Source: Betaproteobacteria bacterium
GTDB lineage: Bacteria; Pseudomonadota; Gammaproteobacteria; Burkholderiales; SG8-39
Assembly (NCBI GenBank): GCA_031389685.1
Contig: JANMSV010000085.1
Span: forward strand, 1-53,859
Direction: 5' to 3'
Length of the DNA stretch: 53,859 nt
The notes under the pieces are model-generated. The model was not told the origin of the DNA. It was given only the letters and a program-made list of their open reading frames with translations, and ran no database searches. Both the position numbers and the translations under genes were made by a program. This document shows, piece by piece, positions 20,330-35,148 of the stretch. Every line of letters begins with the position of its first letter. The stretch's first letter is position 1.

Positions 20330-21526
20330 CTACGTCAACACGATGAGGGCTGCCACGATCAGTCCCGCGACGGCGCCCGCCGCCACGATGGCGGTGTCGC
20401 GCCGCTTCCAGCCTCCGCTCATGGCCATGGCCGTGGTCTGCATGGTGAGCGGGAGGGTGCTGGCCGTCGGGTCGTTCGCCTGCGCGGTGTCGCTCAGCGC
20501 GACCAGGCGCTGAGTCGCCTCCAGGGAATCGAATGTGCGCGACAGCCCGCGCGCCGGTGCCGGGTCCGGGGACGGCGACTCTTCCTCGGCGCGTCGCGAG
20601 CGCTCCACGGTCTGCGCCAGGAACGCCGATTTCACTTCGGCGTCCACCACTGCGGGCGCGAGCGCCGCCAGTGGCAGCGTGTTGGTGGCGCTCGGCGCGC
20701 CGTGCACCTGGTGCTCGCATTCACGCAGGCCACGGGCGATTTCAGCGGCGCTCTGGAACCGTTCCTCCAGCGCCTTGGCAAGCATTTTGCTCACGATCGC
20801 ATCGAGCGCGCTGGGCGCCGCCGGGTTGATGGCGCTCGGCGAGGGCGGCGCGAAATTCACGATCTGGTACATCACGGCGTTGACGCTTTCGCCGGTGAAC
20901 GGCGCCGCCCCCGTCAGCATTTCGTACAGGATCACGCCGAGCGAGAAGATGTCCGAACGATGGTCGGCGCGCTTGCCGATCACCTGCTCGGGAGACATGT
21001 ACTTCGGCGAGCCCATCATCATGCCGGTCTGCGTCTGCACGTTCGAGGAGCGCATGCGCGCGATGCCGAAATCCGTGATCTTCACCGCGCCGCTCTCGGG
21101 CACCATGATATTCGCCGGCTTGATGTCGCGGTGCACCACGCCGCGCTCGTGCGCGTAGGCCAGTCCCTCCGCCACTTGCGCCGCGATCGTCAGCGCACGC
21201 GGCACCGGCAACGGCTTGCCGGGCAGGAGCAGAGTGCGCAACTCTGCGCCCTCGATGTACTCCATCGCCATATAGCAGGCGCTCTCGGTCTTGCCGATGT
21301 CGTACACGGTGACGATGTTGGGATGGTTCAGTCCGCCGGCGGCGCGCGCTTCCTGGTAGAAGCGCTTCTCGTACATTTCCGCGCCGTCGCGGTCCATGCT
21401 CATATTGATGGTCTTGATGGCCACGGTGCGCTCGAGCATCGGGTCCTTCGCCTTGTAGACGATGCCCATCGCTCCGCGGCCGATCTCGGCGAGGATCTCG
21501 AAGCGGCCGAGTTTGTTCTCGTCCAT
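20330..21526 (-). CDS. Hanks-type Ser/Thr protein kinase, C-terminally tail-anchored
   Basis: GRGAMGIVYKA, AIK, HRDIKPANIM, TDFGIAR and YMSPEQ are present. A single TM helix sits at the extreme C-terminus (AIVAAGAVAGLIVAALIVLT). Confidence 0.9.
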   Translation of the reverse strand: MDENKLGRFEILAEIGRGAMGIVYKAKDPMLERTVAIKTINMSMDRDGAEMYEKRFYQEARAAGGLNHPNIVTVYDIGKTESACYMAMEYIEGAELRTLLLPGKPLPVPRALTIAAQVAEGLAYAHERGVVHRDIKPANIMVPESGAVKITDFGIARMRSSNVQTQTGMMMGSPKYMSPEQVIGKRADHRSDIFSLGVILYEMLTGAAPFTGESVNAVMYQIVNFAPPSPSAINPAAPSALDAIVSKMLAKALEERFQSAAEIARGLRECEHQVHGAPSATNTLPLAALAPAVVDAEVKSAFLAQTVERSRRAEEESPSPDPAPARGLSRTFDSLEATQRLVALSDTAQANDPTASTLPLTMQTTAMAMSGGWKRRDTAIVAAGAVAGLIVAALIVLT

Positions 21527-22043: not shown

Positions 22044-23219
22044 TCAGCGAAAGTGATGGCTGACCTGCACGGGCGTCCCGGCTTTCACGTCGACGCGCTG
22101 CAGGAGCGGCCTGAAGGACCCGTTTCGCACTTCGATCAGGTGCGGGCCGGCCGCGAGTTCCACCGTGCGCAGCGGTGGGCTGACGCCGCGTCTCTTGCCG
22201 TCCACGAACACCTCGCCCCAGGGAAGGACGATGAGCTGCACGACCCCGGTGGTGGCGGCTTTCGCCGGCGCGGCTGCCACACTGGTCGTCGCGGCCTGGG
22301 CGCGCGCCGCTTTGGCGGCCAGCGCCTCACGGCGTGCAGCCTTTTGCGCGGCAGTCAACTGCTTTCGAGGGGGCGCAGCTTCGGCGGGCGCTGTTACTGA
22401 TGGTTTTTCGGGGACCGGGGCGGTGTCCGCCGGCACGGACGCCGGCTTGAACACTTGAATTTGCGCCAATGGCGCAGGCTTCATCGCGGTCTGCACAGGC
22501 TTCATTTGAGCGCGCACCGCGACACCCCCGCCGACCAGCAGCGCAAACGCGAGCGGGGCACTGAGCAGTGCGATGCGGTGCACGCCGAACGGGCGCGCGT
22601 CGGTGAGTTCGCCGATCAGCCGCGGCGTGCCGCGGCGCGGCGCTACGCGCCGTGAACTGGTCTCGATCACGCGCCGCGCGGCATCCGTGCCGATGCCCAC
22701 GGAGTACACCTCGTGCTCGCGCACGTGCTTGTCGGTGCGCGCCCCTACGTAGCTGAACAGGCTGGCATAGTCGAGCGACAGGCACGACACGACCTCGTAA
22801 TACGAGCGCGACACCAGCAATTGTCCCGACTGCGCGAACGTCATCACGCGCTGGGCGACATTGATGCCGTCGCCGATGATGTTCATTTGCCCGTTGATGT
22901 CCTTCACCAGGCGCACCGGACCCAGGTTGACGCCGATGCGGATGGAGATCGCGCCCGTGGCCTCGGCGCGCGCCGCGGCCCGCAGCGACATGGCGACGAA
23001 CAGCGCGTCTTCGGGATCGCCGAGGAAGGTGATGCCGGCGCCGTCGCCGGTGTCCAGAACCACGCGGTCGCGCGGCACGACGTTCTCCAGCGCGGCGCTG
23101 AGCAGCTTGTTGAACGCCTGTTTGAGCAGCAATTGCTCCGCCACCGGCTTCGTCGAATACTCGACGATGTCCAGGAATACGATGCTGCAAACCAGCGTGC
23201 GGCTGGGATGTTCGATCAT
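22044..23219 (-). CDS. Class III adenylate/guanylate cyclase - TM - Ala/Pro linker - PEGA domain protein
   Basis: The cyclase core shows VFLDIVEYST, DTGDGAGITF, IGVNLGPV and GDGINVAQRV. The TM segment is IALLSAPLAFALLVGGGVAV. The C-terminal PEGA-like segment is VLPWGEVFVDGKRRGVSP...GPHLIEVRN. Confidence 0.8.
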   Translation of the reverse strand: MIEHPSRTLVCSIVFLDIVEYSTKPVAEQLLLKQAFNKLLSAALENVVPRDRVVLDTGDGAGITFLGDPEDALFVAMSLRAAARAEATGAISIRIGVNLGPVRLVKDINGQMNIIGDGINVAQRVMTFAQSGQLLVSRSYYEVVSCLSLDYASLFSYVGARTDKHVREHEVYSVGIGTDAARRVIETSSRRVAPRRGTPRLIGELTDARPFGVHRIALLSAPLAFALLVGGGVAVRAQMKPVQTAMKPAPLAQIQVFKPASVPADTAPVPEKPSVTAPAEAAPPRKQLTAAQKAARREALAAKAARAQAATTSVAAAPAKAATTGVVQLIVLPWGEVFVDGKRRGVSPPLRTVELAAGPHLIEVRNGSFRPLLQRVDVKAGTPVQVSHHFR

Positions 23220-23257: not shown

Positions 23258-25336
23258 CTATTTTACGCGCATGCCCGGTTGCGCCCCGGTGTCCGGCGAA
23301 ATGAGGAATATTCCCGGTTCTTCCCCCGAGGCGGCGAGCACCATGCCTTCGGAAACCCCGAACTTCATCGTGCGCGGGGCGAGATTGGCGACCACCACCG
23401 CGAGCTTTCCCTCGAGACTGGCCGGGTCGTAGGCCGACTTGATGCCGGCGAACACGGTGCGCGTGCTGCCGCCGAGGTCGAGGGTGAGTTTCAGCAGCTT
23501 GTCGGCGCCCTCCACGTGTTCCGCACTGGCGATTCTCGCCACGCGCAGGTCAAGTTTGTTGAAGTCGTCGATCGTGACAATGTCTGACACGGATTTCTCC
23601 TTGGCTGCGTGCTGCTGATGTTCGGCGTGGCGCTGTGGAGCCGTGGCCTGCGGCACCGATGCGATGTCGAACAGCGCATCAAGTTGCCTGTCATCAACAC
23701 GACTGGTGAGGTGCTTGTAAGCCCCAATCGCGTGATCCTGGCCCAGATACTTCTGCAGATCGTTCCAGGAGAATTGCCTGACGCCTAACATCTGCGCCGA
23801 CAGATCTGCCGTGCGCGGCAGCACCGGTGCCAGCAGGATCGCCAGGAATCGGAATGCTTCAATCGCCTCCGAACATACGATGTGCAGCCGCGTCTCTTGG
23901 TCAGACTGTTTGGCCAGCTCCCACGGCTTCTCGGCGTCCACAAATCGGTTCACATCGTCCGCGAGGTCCATGATGCGTCGAATCGCCTTGCCGAACTCGC
24001 GGGCCTCATAGAAAGCCGCGATTTCCGGTGCGGCGTTCTTCACTGTTGAGGCAATGTCCAAGACAGACTCTTTCTTCAGTCCTACGCCCTGCAACTTCCC
24101 GGCAAACCGCTTCGTGATGAACGGGGCACACCGGCTGGCAATGTTCACGAACTTGCCCACCAGATCGCTGTTCACGCGCGCCAGGAAGTCATCCGGATTG
24201 AAATCCAGATCCTCGACGTTCGCGTTCAGCTTGGCGGCGATGTAGTAGCGCAGCCACTCCGGGTTCATGCCCAGCTCGAGGTAGCGCAGTGGGCTGATGC
24301 CGGTGCCGCGCGACTTGGACATCTTGTCGCCGGACACGGTGATGAAGCCGTGCACGTAGACGTGGTCGGGCACCTTGTAGGGCTTGCCCGCGTACTCCAG
24401 CATCGCCGGCCAGAACAGGGTGTGGAAATAGATGATGTCCTTGCCGATGAAATGGATCTGCTCGGTGCCCGGGTCCTGCAGGAGTCGCTCGAAGTCCAGG
24501 CCGGCCTTGGCGCAGTAGTTCTTGAAGCTCGCGAGGTAGCCGATCGGCGCATCCAGCCAGACGTAAAGGTACTTCTCCTCCTCGATGTCGGGCACGCGGA
24601 TGCCGAAATAGGGCGGGTCGCGCGAGATGTCCCAGTCGCCCAGCGCCTTGTCGCCTTCTCCGTCCAGCCACTCCTTCGTCTTGTTGACCACCTGCGGCTG
24701 CAGGCGCCCCGGCTTGTCCAGCCAGCGCCGCAGGAAGGCCTTGCACTTGGCGTCGGACAGGCGGAAGAAGTGGTGTTCCGACGTCTTCAGCACCGGCGCG
24801 GCGCCGGACAGGGTCGAGTAGGGGTTCTTCAGGTCGGTCGCCGAGTACGCCGCGCTGCAGTTCTCGCAGGCATCCCCGTACTGGTCCTTGGCGCCGCAAT
24901 TCGGGCACTCGCCCTTGATGTAGCGGTCGGCCAGGAACATGTTTTTCACGGGATCGAAGAACTGCTCGACCGGCTTGTTGTAGACCAGCCCCGCCTTCTT
25001 CAGCCGGCGGTAAATGTCCTGCGACAGCTCGGTGTTCTCCACCGAATGCGTCGAGTGCCAGTTGTCGAACGCGATATGGAAGCCGTCCAGATACTGCTTG
25101 CGGCCCCGCGCGATCGCGGCGACGAACTCCTCGGGCGCCTTGCCGGCTTTCTCCGCGGCGAGCATGATCGGCGCGCCATGCGCGTCGTCCGCGCCGACGA
25201 AATGCACCACGTGGCCCTGCATGCGCTGGAAGCGCACCCAGATGTCGGCCTGGATGTACTCCATGATGTGGCCGATGTGGAATGGCCCGTTGGCGTAGGG
25301 CAGCGCGGTGGTGACGAACAGCCTGCGTTGCGGCAT
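23258..25336 (-). CDS. metG: Methionine--tRNA ligase
   Basis: The HIGH motif (ANGPFHIGH), KMSKS, zinc knuckle CPNCG...CENC and a C-terminal EMAP/tRNA-binding domain are present. Confidence 0.97.
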
Positions 25337-25379
25337 TGCTGGCCCGAGGAAAACGCGGATTTTAGCTTACACTTGCGGC

Positions 25380-26465
25380 ATGCCCCTGAGTGAATCCGAG
25401 GTCCGCTCCCTGCTCTCCAAACTGGTCGATCCGAATACCGGCAAGGACTACGTCAGCACGCGTTCTTTGAAGAGCCTCCAGGTGTCCGGCGCGGACGTGC
25501 AGCTCGAGATCGAGCTGGGGTACCCCGGCAAGAGCCAGTTCGAGCCGATCAAGCGCGCGCTGGTCGCGGCGTTGAAGCAGGCGGGCGACGCCAACGTGAG
25601 CGTCGGCGTGGGCTCGAAGGTGGTGTCGCACGCCGTGCAGCGCGGCGTGAAGCTGGTGCCGGGCATCAAGAACATCATCGCGGTGGCCTCCGGCAAGGGC
25701 GGCGTGGGCAAGAGCACCACCGCGGTTAACCTGGCGCTGGCGCTCGCCGCCGAAGGCGCCACGGTGGGCATCCTCGATGCGGATATCTACGGCCCGTCGC
25801 AGCCGATGATGCTCGGCATCGCGGGACGGCCGGAGTCGAAGGATGGCAAGGGCCTCGAACCGATGATGGGCCACGGCCTGCAGGCAATCTCGATCGGTTT
25901 CCTGATCGACGTCGACACGCCGATGGTGTGGCGCGGGCCGATGGTGACGCAGGCGCTCGAGCAGCTGCTCAAGGACACGCGCTGGCGCGACCTGGACTAC
26001 CTGGTGGTGGACCTGCCGCCGGGCACCGGGGACATTCAATTGACGCTGGCGCAGAAAGTGCCGGTGACCGGCGCCGTCATCGTCACCACGCCGCAGGACA
26101 TCGCACTGATCGATGCGCGCAAGGGCCTCAAGATGTTCGAGAAGGTCGGCATCCCGATTCTGGGCGTGGTGGAGAACATGTCCGTCCACGTGTGCCCCAA
26201 GTGCGGCCACCAGAGCCACATTTTCGGCAGTGGTGGTGCCGAACGCATGTGCAAGGACTACGGCACCGTGCTGCTGGGCCAGCTGCCGCTGGACGAGTCG
26301 ATCCGCGCACAGGCGGATTCGGGCAAGCCGACGGTGGTTGCCGATCCCGAGGGCAAGTCGGCGGAAATTTACCGGCGCATCGCGCGCCTGTGCGCAGTCA
26401 AGATCGCCGAGTCGCAGAAGGACATGACCGGCAAGTTCCCCAATATCGTCGTGCAGAACACCTGA
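25380..26465 (+). CDS. apbC: Iron-sulfur cluster carrier protein ApbC/Mrp
   Basis: The deviant Walker A SGKGGVGKST and CPKCGH are present, with an N-terminal DUF59-like part. Confidence 0.92.
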   Translation: MPLSESEVRSLLSKLVDPNTGKDYVSTRSLKSLQVSGADVQLEIELGYPGKSQFEPIKRALVAALKQAGDANVSVGVGSKVVSHAVQRGVKLVPGIKNIIAVASGKGGVGKSTTAVNLALALAAEGATVGILDADIYGPSQPMMLGIAGRPESKDGKGLEPMMGHGLQAISIGFLIDVDTPMVWRGPMVTQALEQLLKDTRWRDLDYLVVDLPPGTGDIQLTLAQKVPVTGAVIVTTPQDIALIDARKGLKMFEKVGIPILGVVENMSVHVCPKCGHQSHIFGSGGAERMCKDYGTVLLGQLPLDESIRAQADSGKPTVVADPEGKSAEIYRRIARLCAVKIAESQKDMTGKFPNIVVQNT

Positions 26466-26474
26466 GCGGCCGGG

Positions 26475-27038
26475 GTGAGCGTCAAATCGGACAAGTGGAT
26501 CCGCCGCATGGCGGCGCAGGGCATGATCGAGCCCTTCGAAGCCGGGCAGGTGAAGGAAGTCGCCGGCAAGCGCGTGGTGTCCTACGGCACCTCCAGCTAC
26601 GGCTACGACGTCCGCTGTGCGGACGAATTCAAGATCTTCACCAACATCAACTCGACCATCGTCGATCCCAAGGCCTTCGACGCGAAGTCCTTCGTCGATT
26701 TCAAGGGCGCGGTGTGCATCATTCCACCCAATTCCTTCGCCCTGGCGCGCACCGTGGAGTATTTCCGCATCCCGCGCAGCGTGCTCACCATCTGCCTGGG
26801 AAAGTCCACCTACGCGCGTTGCGGTATCATCGTCAATGTGACGCCCCTCGAACCCGAGTGGCAGGGCCACGTGACGCTGGAGTTTTCCAACACCACGCCG
26901 CTGCCGGCGAAGATCTACGCCGGCGAGGGCTGCGCGCAGGTGATCTTCCTGGAGTCGGACGAGGTGTGCGAGACGTCCTACCGCGATCGCGGCGGCAAAT
27001 ACCAGGGGCAGCAGGGCGTCACGCTGCCCCGCATCTGA
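26475..27038 (+). CDS. dcd: dCTP deaminase
   Basis: [17 protein letters not shown] and EF.N motifs are present. The start is GTG. Confidence 0.92.
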
Positions 27039-27149
27039 GCCCACAAGTATTAGTGGGTCGGCCGGTTAGCGCGCCTACCTATAGTAGTTTCTCAGACCCG
27101 GCGCCCGTCCGCTCCCAGTGCGATGCGCATTCAGGCGCTCACAAAGCCC

Positions 27150-27177
27150 TTGACTCGCAGGGGGTCATCCCTATAAT
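27150..27177 (+). promoter_or_regulatory. Near-consensus sigma70 promoter TTGACT-16 nt-TATAAT
   Basis: The hexamers are read directly at 27150-27155 and 27172-27177, about 50 nt upstream of the leader ORF ATG. Confidence 0.6.
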
Positions 27178-27225
27178 CGCCCCAAGTTTTCCCTGTTGGG
27201 TCAACGAGCTAAGAAGGAGGTCATC

Positions 27226-27291
27226 ATGACAAGCCAGAGGAACTCGGAGCCGAATTCCCGAGTCGTCGTTCGCGACATTCCTGAGACTTAG
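27226..27291 (+). CDS. Candidate leader peptide (21 aa, MTSQRNSEPNSRVVVRDIPET) upstream of the decarboxylase gene
   Basis: AAGGAGG lies 5 nt before ATG 27226. The stop TAG overlaps an in-frame GTG of the downstream ORF. A/T-ending codons are unusually frequent for this genome. It is too short for the ORF track. Confidence 0.45.
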   Translation: MTSQRNSEPNSRVVVRDIPET

Positions 27292-27311
27292 TGCATCCCG
27301 GGAGAATATTG

Positions 27312-28520
27312 ATGGGCGATCGCCCGAGCAACCTCGTACGCAACAGACAGCAAACCCCGCTTGCGCAAGAACAGCTCTTCGACACGCATCCCGAAGTCAG
27401 CCTCGACTTCGAGATCGTGCGCCAGGCCGCGCGCCAGAAGTACACGCGGCCCTTCCTGATCGTGGATACCGCCATCGTGCGCGAAAAACTGCGCCGCTTC
27501 CGCACCGCCATGCCGCGCGTGCGCCCGCATTACGCGGTGAAGGCCAATCCCGACCGGCGCGTGCTGAAGGCGCTGGTGCAGGAAGGCGCGGGCTTCGAGA
27601 TCGCTTCGACTGCGGAGCTCGACCTGCTGCTGTCCCTGGGTGTGCCCGCAGCGGAAGTTTTTTTCTCCAATCCAATGCGCTCGCGCGAGGCCGACGCCTA
27701 TGCCGCGGCGCAGGGCCTGCGCTGGTTCGTCGTCGACAGCGTGGACGAGTTGCGTCGCATGCACGGCGTGGATCCCACGGCGCAGCTTTACCTGCGCATC
27801 GCCACCCCGAACATCGGCAGCGACTGGCCCTTGTCCGGCAAGTTCGGCGCCGGCGCCGGAGAGACGCGCGAGATCATCGCCATGGCGGCAAAGCTCGGCG
27901 CGGACCTCGCGGGGGTCACCTTTCACGCCGGCTCGCAGTGCCGCAACCCGGCGAACTGGCGCGTCGGCATCGAAAAAGCACGCACTGTGTTCGACGCCAT
28001 GCTCAAGGCCGGGCTCAGGCCGCGCCTGCTCGACATCGGCGGCGGGTTTCCGGTACGCCACGTCAAGCCCATCCCCTCGATCGAGGTGATCGGCGAGGTG
28101 GTGAACGAGGCGCTGAAGGTGTTTGCGGACGACGTGCAGGTGATCGCCGAGCCAGGCCGCTACCTGGTGTCCGACGCCGGCTATTTCGTGTGCCGCATGC
28201 TCGGCACCGCGACGCGCGGCGGCAAGCGCTGGATGCACTGGGACGCGGGACTGTTCGGCGGCGTGATCGAGACCACCGAGGGATTGAAATACAAGATCCG
28301 CACCGAGCGTTCGGGGCCGGACGTCGCCTGGCACGTCGCCGGACCGACCTGCGATTCGGTGGACGTGATCATGCGCGAGGAGCCTCTGCCCTCGGATCTG
28401 CAGGAGGGCGATTTCATTTACCTGCGCAATGCGGGCGCCTACACCACGGCCTACGCCAGCGAGTTCAACGGGTTCCCGCTGCCCGAGGTGCGCGTGTTCG
28501 AGTCCAAGCCGAAGCGCTAG
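27312..28520 (+). CDS. Type III PLP-dependent decarboxylase, ornithine/lysine/arginine decarboxylase family (eukaryotic-ODC-like)
   Basis: HYAVKANPD (PLP Lys), FEIAS, HAGSQC, DIGGGFP and AGPTCDSVD are present. ATG 27312 lies 6 nt after GGGAGA; the alternative start is GTG 27291. Confidence 0.85.
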   Translation: MGDRPSNLVRNRQQTPLAQEQLFDTHPEVSLDFEIVRQAARQKYTRPFLIVDTAIVREKLRRFRTAMPRVRPHYAVKANPDRRVLKALVQEGAGFEIASTAELDLLLSLGVPAAEVFFSNPMRSREADAYAAAQGLRWFVVDSVDELRRMHGVDPTAQLYLRIATPNIGSDWPLSGKFGAGAGETREIIAMAAKLGADLAGVTFHAGSQCRNPANWRVGIEKARTVFDAMLKAGLRPRLLDIGGGFPVRHVKPIPSIEVIGEVVNEALKVFADDVQVIAEPGRYLVSDAGYFVCRMLGTATRGGKRWMHWDAGLFGGVIETTEGLKYKIRTERSGPDVAWHVAGPTCDSVDVIMREEPLPSDLQEGDFIYLRNAGAYTTAYASEFNGFPLPEVRVFESKPKR

Positions 28521-28538
28521 GGTGGGCCGGGGCGCTCC

Positions 28539-29048
28539 CTACACCCTCTCGTAGAGTACGAAATCGAACTGCAGCCCGTCGGCGCCAGTGTGCGGCTTTC
28601 TCTGGGTTTCGCGCCAGGCGGCGCGGTCGTACTCCGGGAAGCGTACATCGCCCGCGTACTCGCGCTGGATCTCGGTCAGCACCAGCCCATGGGCCTGCGG
28701 CAGTGCCGCCGCGTATATTTCGCGGCCGCCGATGACAAACACGGTCGGCTCTCCCGCGCATAGCGCCAGCGCGCCCTCCAGCGAGGCTGCGACGCTCGCG
28801 CCGGCCGCCTCGTAGCCTGGCGCGCGCGTGAGGACGATGTTTTCGCGGCCCGGCAGGGGCTTGCCAAGGGAGTCCCAAGTCTTGCGGCCCATGATGACCG
28901 GGTGGCCCATCGTGAGCATTTTGAAGTGCTGCAAGTCTTCCGGCAGGTGCCAGGGCAGCTTGCCGTTCGCGCCGATGATGCCGTTGGCGGCCACGGCTGC
29001 GACCAAATACACGCGGGGGGTTGCGCAGCGTGCCGTAGCCTGTGACAT
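28539..29048 (-). CDS. folA: Dihydrofolate reductase
   Basis: IIGANGKLPWHLPEDLQHFK, VIMGRKTW and VIGG are present. Confidence 0.93.
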   Translation of the reverse strand: MSQATARCATPRVYLVAAVAANGIIGANGKLPWHLPEDLQHFKMLTMGHPVIMGRKTWDSLGKPLPGRENIVLTRAPGYEAAGASVAASLEGALALCAGEPTVFVIGGREIYAAALPQAHGLVLTEIQREYAGDVRFPEYDRAAWRETQRKPHTGADGLQFDFVLYERV

Positions 29049-29089: not shown

Positions 29090-30571
29090 ATGGCACCTCA
29101 GGACACCTCCCCGAGGGCGGCCCTGCGTTTTCCGCGATCCTTCCTCGGCCTGCTGGTTACCGGCTTCCTGCTGGTTGCGGCGCCGCTCGCCGGGGCACTG
29201 CTGTATTCCGCATGGAACACGCAGCACCTAGCGGAGCAGAGCCGCAACGCGGTCTACAACGCGGCGCAGGCTGCGCGCGGCAGCCGCGCGCTGGTCAACC
29301 GCATCGGCTCGATCGAACGGCTGGCGCAACAGGTCGCGGTATTGCCCGATCCCGAATTGGTCAAGGATTACGAGCGGCTGCACCTCGGATTCATTCAGCT
29401 GTCCGACGAGCTGGCGCGCCTGCCGCTGGACGGCGATCAGCTCGCCGCGCTTCGCCGCACCATCGGCGGCGAGCAGGCGCTCTACGACCTGCTGTCCACC
29501 GCGGCGCCGGTGCCCCCGGATACGCGCGCCGTCGGCGCCAAGGTGACAGAGCTCGCCGACAGCGCGCACGAAGTGCTGGCGATCAGCTATCGCGTCGCCG
29601 ATGGCGAGGTCGAGCGGCTGCGCGCCGCCGCGGAAAGCGTGCAGCGCCGGCTGCTGCAGCTGGTGCTGGTCACCATCGCCGTGGCGCTCGCCATCGCCCT
29701 GGCGCTGACGCGCGTCATCGCGCGGCCCATCGCCGAGCTCGACGCCTCCATCCGGCAGCTCGGCGGCGCCGATTTTTCGCAGCCGATCCGCGTCAGCGGG
29801 CCGCAGGACCTGCGCGACCTCGGCGAGCGGCTCGACTGGCTGCGGCAGCGGCTGATCGAGCTCGAAGCGCAGAAGAACCGTTTCCTGCGCCACCTGTCGC
29901 ACGAGCTCAAGACGCCGCTTGCGTCGCTGCGCGAAGGTGCGGAGCTGCTCAACGACCAGGTCGCCGGGCCGCTGGCGCCGCCGCAGCGCGCGGTGGTCAG
30001 CATCATGCGCGACAACAGCGTCAAGCTGCAGAAGCTGATCGAGGATCTGCTGGATTACCAGCGCGCGTTGCACGCTGCGGCCTCGCTCGAGGTGAGCACG
30101 GTGCAGCTCGACGCGCTGGTACGCGAAGTGGCCGATGCGCACCGGCTCGCCGCGTTGGCCAAAGGCCAGCGCGTGGACCTGGATCTCGCGCCGGTGACGC
30201 TCGACGCGGATGCAGAGAAGCTGCGCTCGATCGTCGACAATCTGCTGGGAAATGCCATCAAGTTCACGCCGGCGGGCGGCGCGATTTCCATCGTCGCGCG
30301 CGAAGCCCAGGCGAGCGTGATCATCGAAGTGATCGATTCCGGACCCGGCGTGCCGCCGGTCGAGCGTGAGGCCGTGTTCGATTCCTTCTTCAGGGGCCGC
30401 GCAAAAGCAGGCGGCCGCGTCGAGGGCAGCGGCCTGGGACTGGCCATTGCGCGCGAGTACGTCGAGGCGCATGGCGGCCGGATTGCGCTGGTGGCGGACG
30501 GCCCGGGAGGGCATTTTCGCGTCACGCTGCCCAAGCGGCCGGTGCTGCTGGCGATGGCGGAGGCGGCGTGA
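29090..30571 (+). CDS. Sensor histidine kinase (2 TM, HAMP, HisKA, HATPase), GlrK/QseE-like by context
   Basis: The H-box is LSHELKTPL, the N-box is NLLGNAIKF, and the G-boxes are DSGPGVP / GSGLGLAI. Confidence 0.88.
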   Translation: MAPQDTSPRAALRFPRSFLGLLVTGFLLVAAPLAGALLYSAWNTQHLAEQSRNAVYNAAQAARGSRALVNRIGSIERLAQQVAVLPDPELVKDYERLHLGFIQLSDELARLPLDGDQLAALRRTIGGEQALYDLLSTAAPVPPDTRAVGAKVTELADSAHEVLAISYRVADGEVERLRAAAESVQRRLLQLVLVTIAVALAIALALTRVIARPIAELDASIRQLGGADFSQPIRVSGPQDLRDLGERLDWLRQRLIELEAQKNRFLRHLSHELKTPLASLREGAELLNDQVAGPLAPPQRAVVSIMRDNSVKLQKLIEDLLDYQRALHAAASLEVSTVQLDALVREVADAHRLAALAKGQRVDLDLAPVTLDADAEKLRSIVDNLLGNAIKFTPAGGAISIVAREAQASVIIEVIDSGPGVPPVEREAVFDSFFRGRAKAGGRVEGSGLGLAIAREYVEAHGGRIALVADGPGGHFRVTLPKRPVLLAMAEAA

Positions 30572-31114: not shown

Positions 31115-32473
31115 ATGAGCCAAGAATTGCCAGCCATCCTGCTCGTCGACGACGATCGCGACTTGTTGCACCTGCTTTCGATGCGCTTGAGCGCCGCGGG
31201 CTACCGCGTGACCGCGGTGGAGTCCGCCGACGCGGCGCTCGCCAGCCTCGCCGTGAAGCGCCCGCAGTTGGTGATCACTGACCTGCGCATGCAGGGCATG
31301 GATGGCCTCGGGTTGTTCGACGCCATCCACCGCCAGGCGCCCTCCCTGCCGGTGGTGATCCTCACCGCGCACGGCACGATCCCGGACGCGGTGGCGGCCA
31401 CGCGCCGCGGTGTGTTCAGCTTTCTCACCAAACCGTTCGAGCCGAAGGTGTTGCTGGAGACGGTTGCCGACGCGCTGCGCTTGTCGACGGCGCCCAGCGG
31501 TGACCGGGCGCATTGGCGCTCGGAGATCATTACGCGTGCGGCGGTCATGGAGTCGCTGCTGGCGCAGGCCCAGCGCGTGGCGGCGTCCGATGCCAGCGTC
31601 TGCATCTTCGGCGCCAGCGGCACCGGCAAGGAATTGCTGGCGCGCGCCATCCACCGCGCCAGCCGGCGCGTCGGCGCACCTTTCATCGCGGTGAATTGCG
31701 GCGCCATCCCCGAGGGACTGCTCGAATCCGAGTTGTTCGGCCATAAAAAGGGCGCGTTCACGGGCGCGGTGCAGGACCGTCGTGGCCTGTTCCAGGCCTG
31801 CGACGGCGGCACGCTGTTCCTGGACGAGGTGGGCGATATGCCGCCGGCGCTCCAGGTCAAACTGCTGCGCGCAATCGAGGACCGCGTGGTGCGGCCGGTG
31901 GGCGCGAATGACGCAGTGGCGGTGGACGTGCGCATCGTGTCCGCAACGCACCGCAATCTCGAGGAGCGCATCGGCACGGGTGAGTTCCGCGAGGATCTGT
32001 ACTACCGGTTGAACGTCGTGAAGCTGGAAATTCCCGCATTGGCGCAACGGCGCGAAGACGTGCCCCTGCTCGCCGGGCATTTCCTCGCGCGCTTCGCCGA
32101 ACGCTACGATCGGCCCCGCCTGGGCATGTCGCCCGAAGCCATGGAGCTGCTGGTTTCGGCCGCCTGGCCCGGCAACGTGCGACAGCTGCTCAACGTCGTC
32201 GAGCGGGCGGTGGCGCTTACGGCAACGGACGTGATTCCGGCCTCGCTCGTGCGCCAGGCACTCGACGCGGGCGCAGGCTCGCTCACGCCGCTGGACGAGG
32301 CGCGCCGCGCTTTCGAGCGCGAGTACCTGGTACGCATCCTCAAGATCACGACCGGGAACGTCACCCAGGCGGCGCGCCTGGCGGGACGCAATCGCACGGA
32401 GTTCTACCGGCTGCTCGAGCGCCACGCTCTGGAGCCGGCGATGTTCAAGATCAAGGTCGCCGCTGAATCCTGA
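31115..32473 (+). CDS. Sigma54-dependent response regulator (REC-AAA+-HTH), GlrR/QseF-like
   Basis: The REC domain reads ILLVDDD...VITDLRMQGMDG. The AAA+ domain has GASGTGKE, the GAFTGA loop and ESELFGH. The C-terminal Fis-type HTH is ITTGNVTQAARLAG. Confidence 0.92.
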   Translation: MSQELPAILLVDDDRDLLHLLSMRLSAAGYRVTAVESADAALASLAVKRPQLVITDLRMQGMDGLGLFDAIHRQAPSLPVVILTAHGTIPDAVAATRRGVFSFLTKPFEPKVLLETVADALRLSTAPSGDRAHWRSEIITRAAVMESLLAQAQRVAASDASVCIFGASGTGKELLARAIHRASRRVGAPFIAVNCGAIPEGLLESELFGHKKGAFTGAVQDRRGLFQACDGGTLFLDEVGDMPPALQVKLLRAIEDRVVRPVGANDAVAVDVRIVSATHRNLEERIGTGEFREDLYYRLNVVKLEIPALAQRREDVPLLAGHFLARFAERYDRPRLGMSPEAMELLVSAAWPGNVRQLLNVVERAVALTATDVIPASLVRQALDAGAGSLTPLDEARRAFEREYLVRILKITTGNVTQAARLAGRNRTEFYRLLERHALEPAMFKIKVAAES

Positions 32474-33054: not shown

Positions 33055-33093
33055 GGGCCCGTCATTTCCCCCTACAGACGGGCCCTTTTTTTT
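33055..33093 (+). terminator. Rho-independent terminator GGGCCCGTC-13 nt-GACGGGCCC-T8
   Basis: A perfect 9-bp GC stem is followed by eight T. It abuts the convergent thyA stop codon. Confidence 0.85.
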
Positions 33094-33904
33094 ATACCGC
33101 GATCGGCGCCTTGATCGCCGGATGCGGTTCGTAACCCTCCAGCGTGAAATCCTCGTATTGGAAGGCGAACACATCGCGCACCACGGGATTCAGGCGCATG
33201 CGCGGAAACGCGCGCGGTTCGCGCCGCAACTGCTCGCGCGCCTGCTCCAGGTGGTTGAGGTACAGGTGCGCGTCGCCCAGCGTAAGTACGAACTCGCCTG
33301 GCTGCAGGCCGGTGACCTGGGCAACCATCCGCGTCAGCAGCGCGTAGGAGGCGATGTTGAACGGTACGCCCAGGAACAGGTCAGCGCTCCTCTGGTACAT
33401 CTGGCAGGACAGGCGCCCGCCGGCGACGTAAAACTGGAACAGCGCATGGCAGGGCGGTAGCGCCATGCGCTCCACGTCCGCCGGGTTCCACGCGCTCACC
33501 AGATGGCGCCGCGAATCGGGCCGCGCGCGAATCGCTTCCACCACCTGCCGGATCTGGTCGATTTCGCGCCCGTCGGGCGTGCGCCAGTGGCGCCACTGGT
33601 AACCGTACACCGGACCAAGCTCGCCCTGCGCGTCCGCCCACTCGTCCCAGATGGTGACGCCGTGCTGCTGGAGCCAGCGCACGTTGGTGTCCCCACGCAG
33701 GAACCACAGCAGTTCATAGGCGATCGACTTGAGATGCAACTTCTTGGTGGTGAGCAAAGGAAAGTTCTGCGCCAGCCCGAAGCGCAGCTGCCGGCCGAAG
33801 ACCGAACGGGTCCCGGTACCGGTGCGATCGGTCTTGAGCGCGCCCTCCTGCAGTACCTCGGCCAGCAGGTCGAGGTACTGCCGCTCGCCGGGATCGGGGC
33901 TCAT
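33092..33904 (-). CDS. thyA: Thymidylate synthase
   Basis: [31 protein letters not shown] and DAHLY are present, with near-colinear similarity to E. coli ThyA. The ATG overlaps the upstream kinase stop (ATGA). Confidence 0.97.
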
Positions 33905-35148
33905 ACCGCGATCATCGCAAATAATTCGCGCGCGCTCTGAAAACGCGCTTCGGGTGCCTTGGCGAGCAGTTTTTCGAGGATGCTCTGGTACCCGGCGAGC
34001 CGTCCCGGCAAGCGGGGAATCGGCCCGTGCACGTGCTGGTACACCAGGTCCGCGGGACCCGCGATGCCGTAGAGCGCCTGGCCGCTCAACATCTCGTAGA
34101 ACATCACGCCGAGGCTGTACAGGTCGGAGCGGTGGTCGGCGGGCTTGCCCAGGCATTGCTCGGGGCTCATGTAGCGCGGCGTGGCAATCACTTCGCCGTG
34201 CCGCGTAAGCATGGCCTTTGCACCGAGGTCCTTGGCGAGCCCGAAATCCACGATCACCGGCCGTCCGTTGTCGCGGAACAGGATGTTCTGCGGTTTGAGG
34301 TCGCGGTGAATGATGCCGTGCGCATGGATGGCATCGAGCGCACGCGCGATCTGGGACGTGATGCGCAGCGCCGCGAGCGAGTTGAGGCCCTCGTGGATGC
34401 GCGTGGCGAGCGTGCCGCCCGACAGGTACTCCATCGCTATATAGGGGTGCTCGCCGGCGAAGCCCTGGTCGTAGATGTGCGCGACGTACTCGTTGTGCAG
34501 GCCGGCCACCAGTTTGTATTCCTGCACGAAGCGCTTGAAGAAAGTGCGGTCCGAGCGCAAATGCGGGTCCAGCACCTTGAGCACCAGCTGCAAGCCGTCC
34601 TGCTCGCGCTCGGCGAGGTACACCTGCGCCATCCCGCCCTCGCCGATTTTGCACAGGCTGCGGTATCCCGGGATCGCACGGTCGTCGCGGTCGATCGGTG
34701 TGCCGGCCTTGCGCGAGTCCAGCTGCGTCGTGCGCTGGAAGGCCGGTGGGCCGGACGCGTCCGCGTGGCGCGCCTCCCACTCTCGCAGCGCGTCCTCCAC
34801 CGCGCGCACCAGATTCTCGGCGCCGAGGCCGCTCTTGCAGAGGACGCCGGCGGCACCGGGCTGGATGCCGTTTCGCGGCGGATTGTCACCCTCGGCTTGG
34901 GCGAAGATCAGCACGGGCGGGGCCTGGGGATCGCGCAGAATCTCGGCCGCCCAGTCAGGATCGGCCTCGCCTTCGGGCGCCACGCCCAGCAACACCGCCG
35001 CGTAGCGTTCGCGGTCCAGCGCGGCCCGCGGGCTGCCGCGCTCCCGCGGATCCCACTCGTCCGTGAACGCCAGGGGCCAGCGGGCGCGCAGCATGCCGGC
35101 GAGCGTGCTGCAGAACTCGCGGGAAGGGTCCACGATGAGAAAGCGCAT
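33901..35148 (-). CDS. Receiver-like domain fused to a Hanks-type Ser/Thr protein kinase
   Basis: The N-terminus is CheY-like (MRFLIVDPS...AAVLLGV...VLIFAQ). The kinase part has [32 protein letters not shown] and YMSPEQ. The start is ATG 35148; the alternative is 35175. Confidence 0.85.

Follow-up and report, generated by a model that had tools for sequence, protein, structure and literature searches.

A conserved short leader open reading frame upstream of ornithine decarboxylase in Betaproteobacteria, a candidate termination-linked control element

Leader-encoded control of ornithine decarboxylase genes

In bacteria, only a few nascent peptides that sense metabolites are known (TnaC, SpeFL, and some others), and each is informative about how small molecules are recognized in the ribosomal exit tunnel. 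In eukaryotes, the AdoMetDC mRNA's upstream open reading frame (uORF), which encodes the peptide MAGDIS, causes polyamine-dependent stalling at termination that blocks downstream initiation, an arrangement that amounts to product feedback. SpeF is an inducible ornithine decarboxylase (ODC) of the AAT fold. In Gammaproteobacteria, speF–potE is preceded by SpeFL (orf34, DUF2618), an ornithine-sensing arrest peptide; the Escherichia coli speFL ORF ends in UAG, blocks release factor 1 (RF1), and contains functionally important rare codons (bioRxiv 10.1101/604074). TnaC and PepNL are further leader peptides of bacteria, each of which prevents a release factor from acting at its own stop codon (PMC11890864), and the alphaproteobacterial odc1 motif includes a conserved 11-codon uORF that starts 5 nt before, and overlaps, the main UUG start codon (PMC8632094). 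Here we describe a 21-codon ORF that lies immediately upstream of an ODC gene in a 53,859-nt stretch of DNA (hereafter the window; contig JANMSV010000085.1, assembly GCA_031389685.1) from a betaproteobacterium of the Burkholderiales. Comparison with related loci supports this ORF as a genuine element that is under selection for its peptide and linked to ODC, and we discuss whether it may act in cis on ODC translation.

The leader resembles SpeFL in being a short ORF placed before an ODC gene, in its conserved rare codons, and, as proposed below, in acting at termination while the peptide is still within the tunnel. The two share no sequence similarity, however, and SpeFL has 34 residues, whereas the present peptides typically have 19–22. 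The downstream enzyme is the AAT-fold SpeF in one case and an alanine-racemase-fold ODC (PF02784/PF00278) in the other, and no potE-like gene was found after ODC among the flanking ORFs scanned here. The speFL ORF is located 257 nt upstream of speF, and ornithine-induced arrest turns speF on via Rho antitermination (bioRxiv 10.1101/604074); that 257-nt Rho-dependent region carries a rut site, whereas here a spacer of 17–35 nt separates ORF and gene, and with the stop 17–22 nt from the ATG, as in most members, stalling should turn ODC off rather than on. Further, each of the three stop codons is found at the end of speFL in one species or another (bioRxiv 10.1101/604074), whereas the present family uses TAG only.

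By analogy, the leader may resemble termination-acting leader peptides in function. As with TnaC and PepNL, a short peptide held fully in the tunnel, critical C-terminal residues, release-factor-specific effects, and control of a downstream gene would all be involved; and, as in the TnaC-like class, purifying selection is strongest near the C-terminus, with conservation declining toward the middle. The sequences are nevertheless unrelated: TnaC and PepNL target RF2 at UGA, and TnaC operates through Rho over a long spacer. The likeness to the MAGDIS uORF—a uORF with a conserved peptide on the mRNA of a polyamine-synthesis enzyme, with the same feedback logic as that proposed here—is functional and by analogy only, as the eukaryotic system involves scanning and a hexapeptide and there is no homology. 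The alphaproteobacterial ODC leaders (speF, RF00518; ar45, RF02347; odc1) are likewise cis-regulatory and upstream of an ODC of the same fold, and odc1 also contains a short ORF. But the speF and ar45 leaders are long structured RNAs, found neither in the window nor in Nitrosomonas/Nitrosospira loci, and the odc1 uORF overlaps its gene's start, whereas the ORF described here is separate, 19–22 codons long, and ends 17–35 nt before an ATG. Classical amino-acid attenuators differ in turn, as the present leader has no codon run, no terminator, and no conserved hairpins.

Architecture and conservation of the leader ORF

A previous sequence-only reading of this locus had pointed to a near-consensus promoter, a Shine–Dalgarno (SD) sequence 5 nt before an ATG, a 21-codon ORF whose stop overlaps a GTG of the decarboxylase frame (TAGTG), a 20-nt gap, and an ODC-family decarboxylase gene; all of these are present where it placed them (Table 1). 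The promoter is the sole promoter-like site in positions 26900–28800 (1.9 kb), where 0.2 would be expected by chance. The leader SD, AAGGAGGUcAUC, agrees at 11 of 12 positions with GAUCACCUCCUU, which we take to be the complement of the 16S rRNA 3' tail. At the other end of the ORF, the G of the stop codon is the first base of the GTG (27291), and the stop ends 20 nt before the ODC ATG at 27312. The motif CCNGARACNTAG has a single occurrence within the window, at the end of the leader ORF, and a search of the window for a second copy of the leader motif found none.

Table 1. Positions of the leader ORF, the ODC gene, and associated features in the window
Feature	Position	Strand	Basis or remark
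Sigma-70-type promoter TTGACT-16-TATAAT, spacer with G-run...CCC	27150–27177	+	11/12 positions match; -35 TTGACT 27150–27155, -10 TATAAT 27172–27177, 16 nt between
5' untranslated leader with U/C-rich UUUUCCC motif	27184–27213	+	Sequence; predicted transcription start near 27184
Extended SD and spacer, AAGGAGGTCATC	27214–27225	+	Positions -10 to -1 the same base in 68–73 of 73 distinct sequences; SD AAGGAGG 27214–27220, then 5 nt TCATC, then ATG 27226
Leader ORF, 21 codons and TAG, MTSQRNSEPNSRVVVRDIPET	27226–27291	+	In frame in 77/81 ODC-anchored loci; stop TAG 27289–27291
C-terminal core, last 11 codons, SRVVVRDIPET	27256–27288	+	Conservation climbs toward the C-terminus; family consensus (Y/F)(D/E)V(C/V)(V/I)(R/L)(D/H/E)(I/L)P(E/V)T
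Pro-Glu-Thr codons and TAG stop (CCT GAG ACT TAG)	27280–27291	+	Codon positions 1 and 2 (near-)invariant
20-nt spacer with ODC SD GGGAGA (27300–27305)	27292–27311	+	Sequence
Alanine-racemase-fold ornithine (or lysine/ornithine) decarboxylase, 402 residues	27312–28520	+	PF02784 3.5e-55, PF00278 3.2e-15

A search anchored on the ODC protein only recovered 80 loci from uncultured Burkholderiales/'Betaproteobacteria' genomes, with ODCs 80–94% identical to the query; together with the window, these make a set of 81 ODC-anchored loci, which hold 73 distinct nucleotide versions of the leader. The survey covers the closest relatives of this ODC, down to ~60% identity, and the loci compared here are phylogenetically related, such that the counts given below are not independent events. 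The uORF is present in 77 of the 81 loci, and all 77 leaders end in Pro-Glu-Thr-TAG, one of them with Gly (GGT) in place of Thr. This count is not circular, because every locus with a leader matched the search pattern and the four failures have no space for one. Directly before the leader ATG, GGAGGTCATC is nearly invariant across the 73 distinct sequences. The strict promoter pattern TTGACN-N15-19-TANAAT occurs at the equivalent place in 65/81 loci, and the Nitrosomonas and Nitrosospira loci described below have related TTGATT...TATAAT promoters.

The form of this conservation points to the peptide. Across the 73 distinct sequences, the last three sense codons read CCN GAR ACN (GGT for ACN once); codon positions 1 and 2 have an entropy of 0–0.1 bit, while position 3 varies by 1.0–1.4 bits (CCT 52, CCC 17, CCA 2, CCG 2; GAA 43, GAG 30; ACC 35, ACT 29, ACG 7, ACA 1). 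Free third positions beside fixed or nearly fixed first and second ones are the hallmark of selection for the residues Pro-Glu-Thr and not for the RNA; the substitution pattern in the leader is codon-periodic. Away from the C-terminal core, conservation dips mid-peptide and rises again at the N-terminus, which reads M-(T/R/K)-(S/G)-x-(R/K)-N. The suggestion in the sequence-only reading of an independent leader-peptide element for ODC thus stands as far as peptide-level selection and linkage to ODC are concerned. Its further claim that the ORF is rich in rare codons also proved sound, and the rare usage is itself conserved: GC content at third codon positions is 0.64 in the uORF, whereas the ODC genes that accompany it reach 0.88. 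At the fourth codon from the end, Ile is encoded by ATT in 42/49 sequences (86%, versus 8% of Ile codons in those ODC genes) and Leu by CTT in 20/21 (versus 6% of Leu codons); at the third from the end, Pro is encoded by CCT in 52/73 (71%, versus 5% of Pro codons). At the other end, ACA dominates codon 2 and AGG codon 5, and the first codons are A-rich and never the common synonymous codons.

A second line of evidence makes no use of ODC sequence. Metagenome contigs were scanned for GGAGGTCATCATGA, followed at any distance of 35–65 nt by CCNGARACNTAG, which returned at least 120 further copies. Among the matches listed, 120/120 keep the reading frame without an internal stop, and their ORFs measure 57, 60, 63, 66, or 69 nt; and among those listed with enough downstream DNA, 118/118 are then followed by an ODC homolog (56–92% identity), ~17–50 nt away. 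Because the matches are in frame and always precede ODC, the element appears to be a coding unit specifically tied to ODC. At least 136 distinct leader peptides were gathered in all, of which 100 have 21 residues and 130 have 19–22. Those variants that are more distant and AT-rich, MRSKINLFIQTDWVQVHIPET among them, accompany Nitrosomonas-type ODCs. The ODC loci of cultured strains, which were fetched by protein identity alone, encode corresponding leaders in Nitrosomonas ureae (CP013341; MRSIKNFFAPADLVNIHIPET), N. communis (MISKANSSAQSDLVHIHIPET), and Nitrosospira lacus (CP021106; MKSKANYFDTADLVNIHIPVT), as does an N. cryotolerans-type contig (MICKVNFSIPADLVNVHIPVT). These Nitrosomonas and Nitrosospira leaders end in HIPET or HIPVT, then TAG, and in the four Nitrosomonadaceae leaders the TAG is ~22 nt before the ODC ATG. 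With the nitrifier variants included, the core of the family becomes (I/L)-P-(E/V)-T-UAG.

The four ODC-anchored loci without the uORF (L036; L041, a Nitrosovibrio sp. Nv4 metagenome-assembled genome; L045; and L058) have the -10 box 33–45 nt from the ODC ATG, which leaves no room for it. Promoter and ODC are kept in all four, and in L036 and L058 an ODC SD can also still be recognized. These absences look like independent clean deletions, and the retention of promoter and ODC in four such lineages suggests that the uORF is dispensable for ODC expression, as would be expected of a modulator. Several other loci harbor variant or decaying copies: a 15-nt tandem duplication of the SD and ATG unit that yields a 26-residue peptide (L067, ~590–650), a nine-residue in-frame remnant, MRSKRVPET (L072), a leader that starts with CTG (L062), and two leaders that keep the C-terminal YDVCxRDIPET with a weak SD and an unrelated 5' half and N-terminus (L051 and L068).

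The peptide appears to belong outside every described family. Three family peptides had no match in Pfam or NCBIfam at E<=10, and a profile search of the PDB with 35 family members recovered no arrest peptide and no relative. These searches agree with the earlier impression that the peptide has no resemblance to SpeFL. An exact look-up of seven family peptides in a collection of 15 billion proteins found none of them, which suggests that the uORF is systematically missed by genome annotation. The searchable literature describes SpeFL/orf34, the alphaproteobacterial odc1 and speF elements, and eukaryotic polyamine uORFs, and we found in it no betaproteobacterial ODC leader peptide; the leader is thus apparently an undescribed translational control element, as the sequence-only reading had supposed.

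Termination geometry and competing explanations

The stop codon and its position suggest where such an element might act. The leader stop is TAG in 73/73 distinct sequences and in the four Nitrosomonadaceae loci, regardless of genome GC content, whereas the stop of ODC itself, a matched control from the same loci, is TAG in 47, TGA in 15, and TAA in 13. UAG is the only stop codon read by RF1 alone. The spacer from TAG to the ODC ATG is 17–26 nt long in 67/73 sequences (overall range 17–35 nt), and the core of the ODC SD begins 5–12 nt past the TAG in 64/73 and ends 6–9 nt before the ATG. In toeprinting, a ribosome shields ~10–11 nt on the 3' side of its A-site codon; a ribosome waiting on the UAG would therefore cover the ODC SD and exclude an initiating 30S subunit. 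This occlusion geometry fits 64 of the 73 sequences, and ~8% have longer spacers.

The frame relation between the two ORFs was also considered. Spacer length modulo 3 is 2 in 48/73 sequences, 1 in 14, and 0 in 11. An antizyme-like programmed frameshift from the uORF into ODC is rejected, as the spacer varies over 17–35 nt and the frame relation is not fixed; it is also disfavored in the window, where the ODC frame has a TGA inside CCTGAG. In 29/73 sequences, the next in-frame stop after the TAG is a TGA that overlaps the ODC ATG (TGATG; TTGATG at 27309–27314 in the window). Elsewhere the next in-frame stop may be anywhere, and a conserved design for UAG read-through is likewise rejected.

On these grounds we consider it slightly more probable than an even chance, though by no means assured, that the 21-codon ORF encodes a cis-acting, termination-linked leader peptide of the ODC mRNA. 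In such a model, a strong and probably constitutive promoter would produce a leader of ~125 nt, and the long SD and A-rich start region would ensure efficient ribosome loading at the uORF. By the time the stop codon is reached, the entire 19–22-residue peptide would still be within the exit tunnel, where its C-terminal 10–11 residues and the RF1-only UAG would set the dwell time of the ribosome, possibly modulated by a small molecule. With the ODC SD 5–12 nt and the ODC AUG 17–22 nt past the UAG, as in most members, the waiting ribosome would physically cover the ribosome-binding site of ODC; slow or arrested termination would lower ODC translation, and quick release would free the site and may allow re-initiation. 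The geometry speaks for repression by a ribosome that dwells on the stop codon. A near-consensus promoter ahead of a biosynthetic ODC makes feedback by the product the sensible logic, and the most sensible signal would be the product pool, that is, putrescine or a derived polyamine, acting negatively. Still, we hold a polyamine ligand to be a tentative and on the whole doubtful proposal. The same caution applies to the fullest version of the model, in which the ribosome, the 21-residue peptide, and a polyamine (putrescine, 2-hydroxyputrescine, or spermidine) would jointly block RF1 at the UAG such that the arrested ribosome covers the ODC ribosome-binding site; the leader would then be the first nascent peptide in bacteria to sense a polyamine product, which we think possible but improbable. 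We infer translation of the uORF, the termination pause, the occlusion, the sign of regulation, and the ligand from the conserved features described above.

Several observations weigh against a termination-linked leader peptide. The ligand and the sign of regulation are drawn from physiological logic only. The peptide has no known arrest motif and is unlike any characterized arrest peptide in Pfam, NCBIfam, or the PDB. In the ~8% of the family with spacers of 28–35 nt, the ODC SD would lie beyond the stretch that is directly covered by a ribosome at termination. Some of the apparent peptide conservation may have another source: in the N-terminal third (ACA, AGC/GGC, AGG, AAC), synonymous alternatives are never used among the 73 sequences, and conservation there looks partly nucleotide-level, such that not all of it reflects selection on the peptide. 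Additionally, the invariant TAG and the T-ending codons could have an RNA-level role instead: UUCCU is complementary to the AGGAG of both SDs.

The released peptide might alternatively function in trans, for example as an antizyme-like binder or regulator of ODC, or simply as a co-expressed small protein. Peptide-level selection, conserved length, and strict co-occurrence with ODC would be equally expected of such a micropeptide. But this explanation, which we regard as unlikely, accounts neither for a stop that is always TAG while the stop of ODC itself drifts, nor for the placement of that stop 17–22 nt from the ODC ATG in most members, nor for a conservation peak at the last three residues; the peptide is, moreover, short, hydrophilic, and without a detectable family, and four lineages have lost the uORF and kept ODC.

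We assign a similarly low probability to a uORF that senses nothing: one that provides constitutive translational coupling or ribosome delivery, or a fixed damper of basal ODC output, with no ligand and no arrest. The very strong uORF SD, the short spacer, and the good ODC SD are in keeping with this, as are the TGATG in the uORF frame at the ODC ATG in 29/73 sequences—a typical coupling arrangement—and leaders that are, if anything, less structured than shuffled sequences. Coupling, however, requires no specific peptide, and it leaves unexplained the Pro-Glu/Val-Thr residues with their synonymous drift, the C-terminal core, the conserved length, and the TAG; further, ODC has a good SD of its own, and the same promoter serves the lineages without a uORF.

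A switch at the RNA level, including a riboswitch, would have alternative SD pairings control ODC initiation and the ORF be incidental. Several candidate pairings exist. In the minimum free energy (MFE) fold of the window leader, the ODC SD is bound by the 5' UUUUCCC and the uORF SD by AUUCCU; the rare ATT/CTT and CCT codons are exactly those that make UUCCU (fourth and third codons from the end) complementary to AGGAG. The UUCCU is pairable with the AGGAG of either SD in 83–90% of alignment cells, reaching 90% for the helix with the uORF SD, while its pairing with the ODC SD is not above controls; as both arms are invariant for other reasons, covariation is uninformative here, and controls score as high. 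The sequence-only reading had proposed a different hairpin, in which TCCCG (27256–27260) would pair with CGGGA (27299–27303), part of the ODC SD region. Both motifs exist, although TCCCG spans codons 11–12 of the leader rather than 10–12, but the pairing itself did not hold up: it is absent from the window MFE fold, is paired in only 51% of cells among 56 relatives (of its five pairs, one is disrupted in 37 and another in 44 of these sequences), and is not conserved.

Nor does the leader as a whole show conserved or unusually stable structure. RNAalifold, run on 59 and on 56 leaders, predicted nothing in the leader and only a 3-bp GC clamp within the first ODC codons, without covariation; the 5' untranslated leader, which is partly conserved among close relatives, shows no covariation-supported structure in the leader alignments. 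Folding energies of the 73 leaders are slightly weaker than those of dinucleotide shuffles (mean z +0.70, none below -2; -0.22 for the window), and the window MFE fold, projected on the alignment, has 71.9% of cells paired versus 71.8% in shuffles, again with no covariation. Rfam gave no match at E<=10 in window positions 26000–29000, nor at E<=0.1 in two Nitrosomonas/Nitrosospira loci (L201 and L202), even though the same scan detects the alphaproteobacterial ODC leaders, scoring 43–173 bits on Rhizobiales and Methylobacterium ODC loci. Conserved RNA structure is not the explanation of leader conservation, and with substitutions that are codon-periodic, we consider an RNA-level switch very unlikely. 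As a separate observation, ODC codons 2–5 (27315–27326) form a palindrome, GGGCGATCGCCC, whose GGGC/GCCC arms persist in 50–56 of 56 relatives around a variable central residue (D/V/A), with no covariation seen; it may reflect a small hairpin directly behind the start codon, or no more than a conserved MG-x-RP N-terminus.

Least probable of all is attenuation-like sensing of tRNA charging, in which rare codons such as AGG (Arg) at codon 5 would slow the ribosome when charged tRNA is scarce: the rare codons are conserved, and rare codons linked to arginine are important in the speF leader of Salmonella and E. coli (PMC6386406), but there is no run of codons for a single amino acid and no terminator or antiterminator, many members, those of Nitrosomonas among them, have Lys (AAG) at codon 5, and the invariant C-terminus and TAG would remain unexplained.

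Genomic context and significance

The decarboxylase comprises Orn_Arg_deC_N and Orn_DAP_Arg_deC domains; its best PDB match is the Vibrio lysine/ornithine decarboxylase 2plj (6.5e-64), with eukaryotic ODCs also near, and near-identical homologs carry the Joint Genome Institute label 'ornithine decarboxylase'. Between the uORF and this gene there is no terminator. Within the promoter, the spacer (27156–27171; G-run...TCATCCC) is itself kept across loci, and the sequence GG(G/A)GGTCATC is common to this spacer and the SD-spacer region of the uORF (27216–27225), ~60 nt apart; the repeat might bind a protein or be due to chance.

Upstream of ODC are metG (minus strand), a gene for an Mrp/ApbC-type ATPase, and dcd. 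The order mrp/apbC–dcd–ODC...(folA)–thyA is common to the window (25308–28520 and 33092–34780) and to two Nitrosospira/Nitrosomonas-type contigs (L202 and L204); in the window, genes for a histidine kinase (29090–30571) and a sigma-54 response regulator (31115–32473) are found between ODC and thyA. Farther out, upstream of metG, are a eukaryotic-type Ser/Thr kinase gene (20330–21526, minus strand) and an ORF whose match to an adenylate/guanylate cyclase domain is weak (22044–23219, minus strand), both of which appear unrelated to the leader. No polyamine genes were found near ODC among the 15 flanking ORFs scanned (17.4–35.3 kb).

More distant ODC homologs on plasmids (31–37% identity) are alpha- or gammaproteobacterial or actinobacterial, and the three alphaproteobacterial ODC loci inspected carry RNA leaders instead of the uORF. 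In these loci (L207–L209: Sinorhizobium meliloti pSymB odc2, Methylobacterium aquaticum, and Rhizobium leguminosarum), ar45 (RF02347) and speF (RF00518) leaders precede an ODC of the same fold with ~36% identity, which suggests that one enzyme family gained different leader controls in different classes.

The leader described here offers several advantages for study. It is short and abundant, with at least 136 natural variants, a sharp core of (I/L)P(E/V)T and UAG, and a strict RF1-only stop; its simple geometry makes a clear prediction; its hosts include the cultured Nitrosomonas ureae, N. communis, and Nitrosospira lacus; and the loci without the uORF (L036, L041, L045, and L058) provide natural 'knock-outs' for comparison. 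If a termination-linked leader peptide is indeed at work, it would explain how the first step of polyamine synthesis is controlled in widespread betaproteobacteria, including nitrifiers, and it would represent a third independent solution to the leader control of ODC, beside SpeFL in Gammaproteobacteria and structured RNAs in Alphaproteobacteria. And should the peptide prove to sense a polyamine, ammonia oxidizers and many soil and freshwater Burkholderiales would harbor a bacterial, independently evolved counterpart of the MAGDIS uORF of AdoMetDC.

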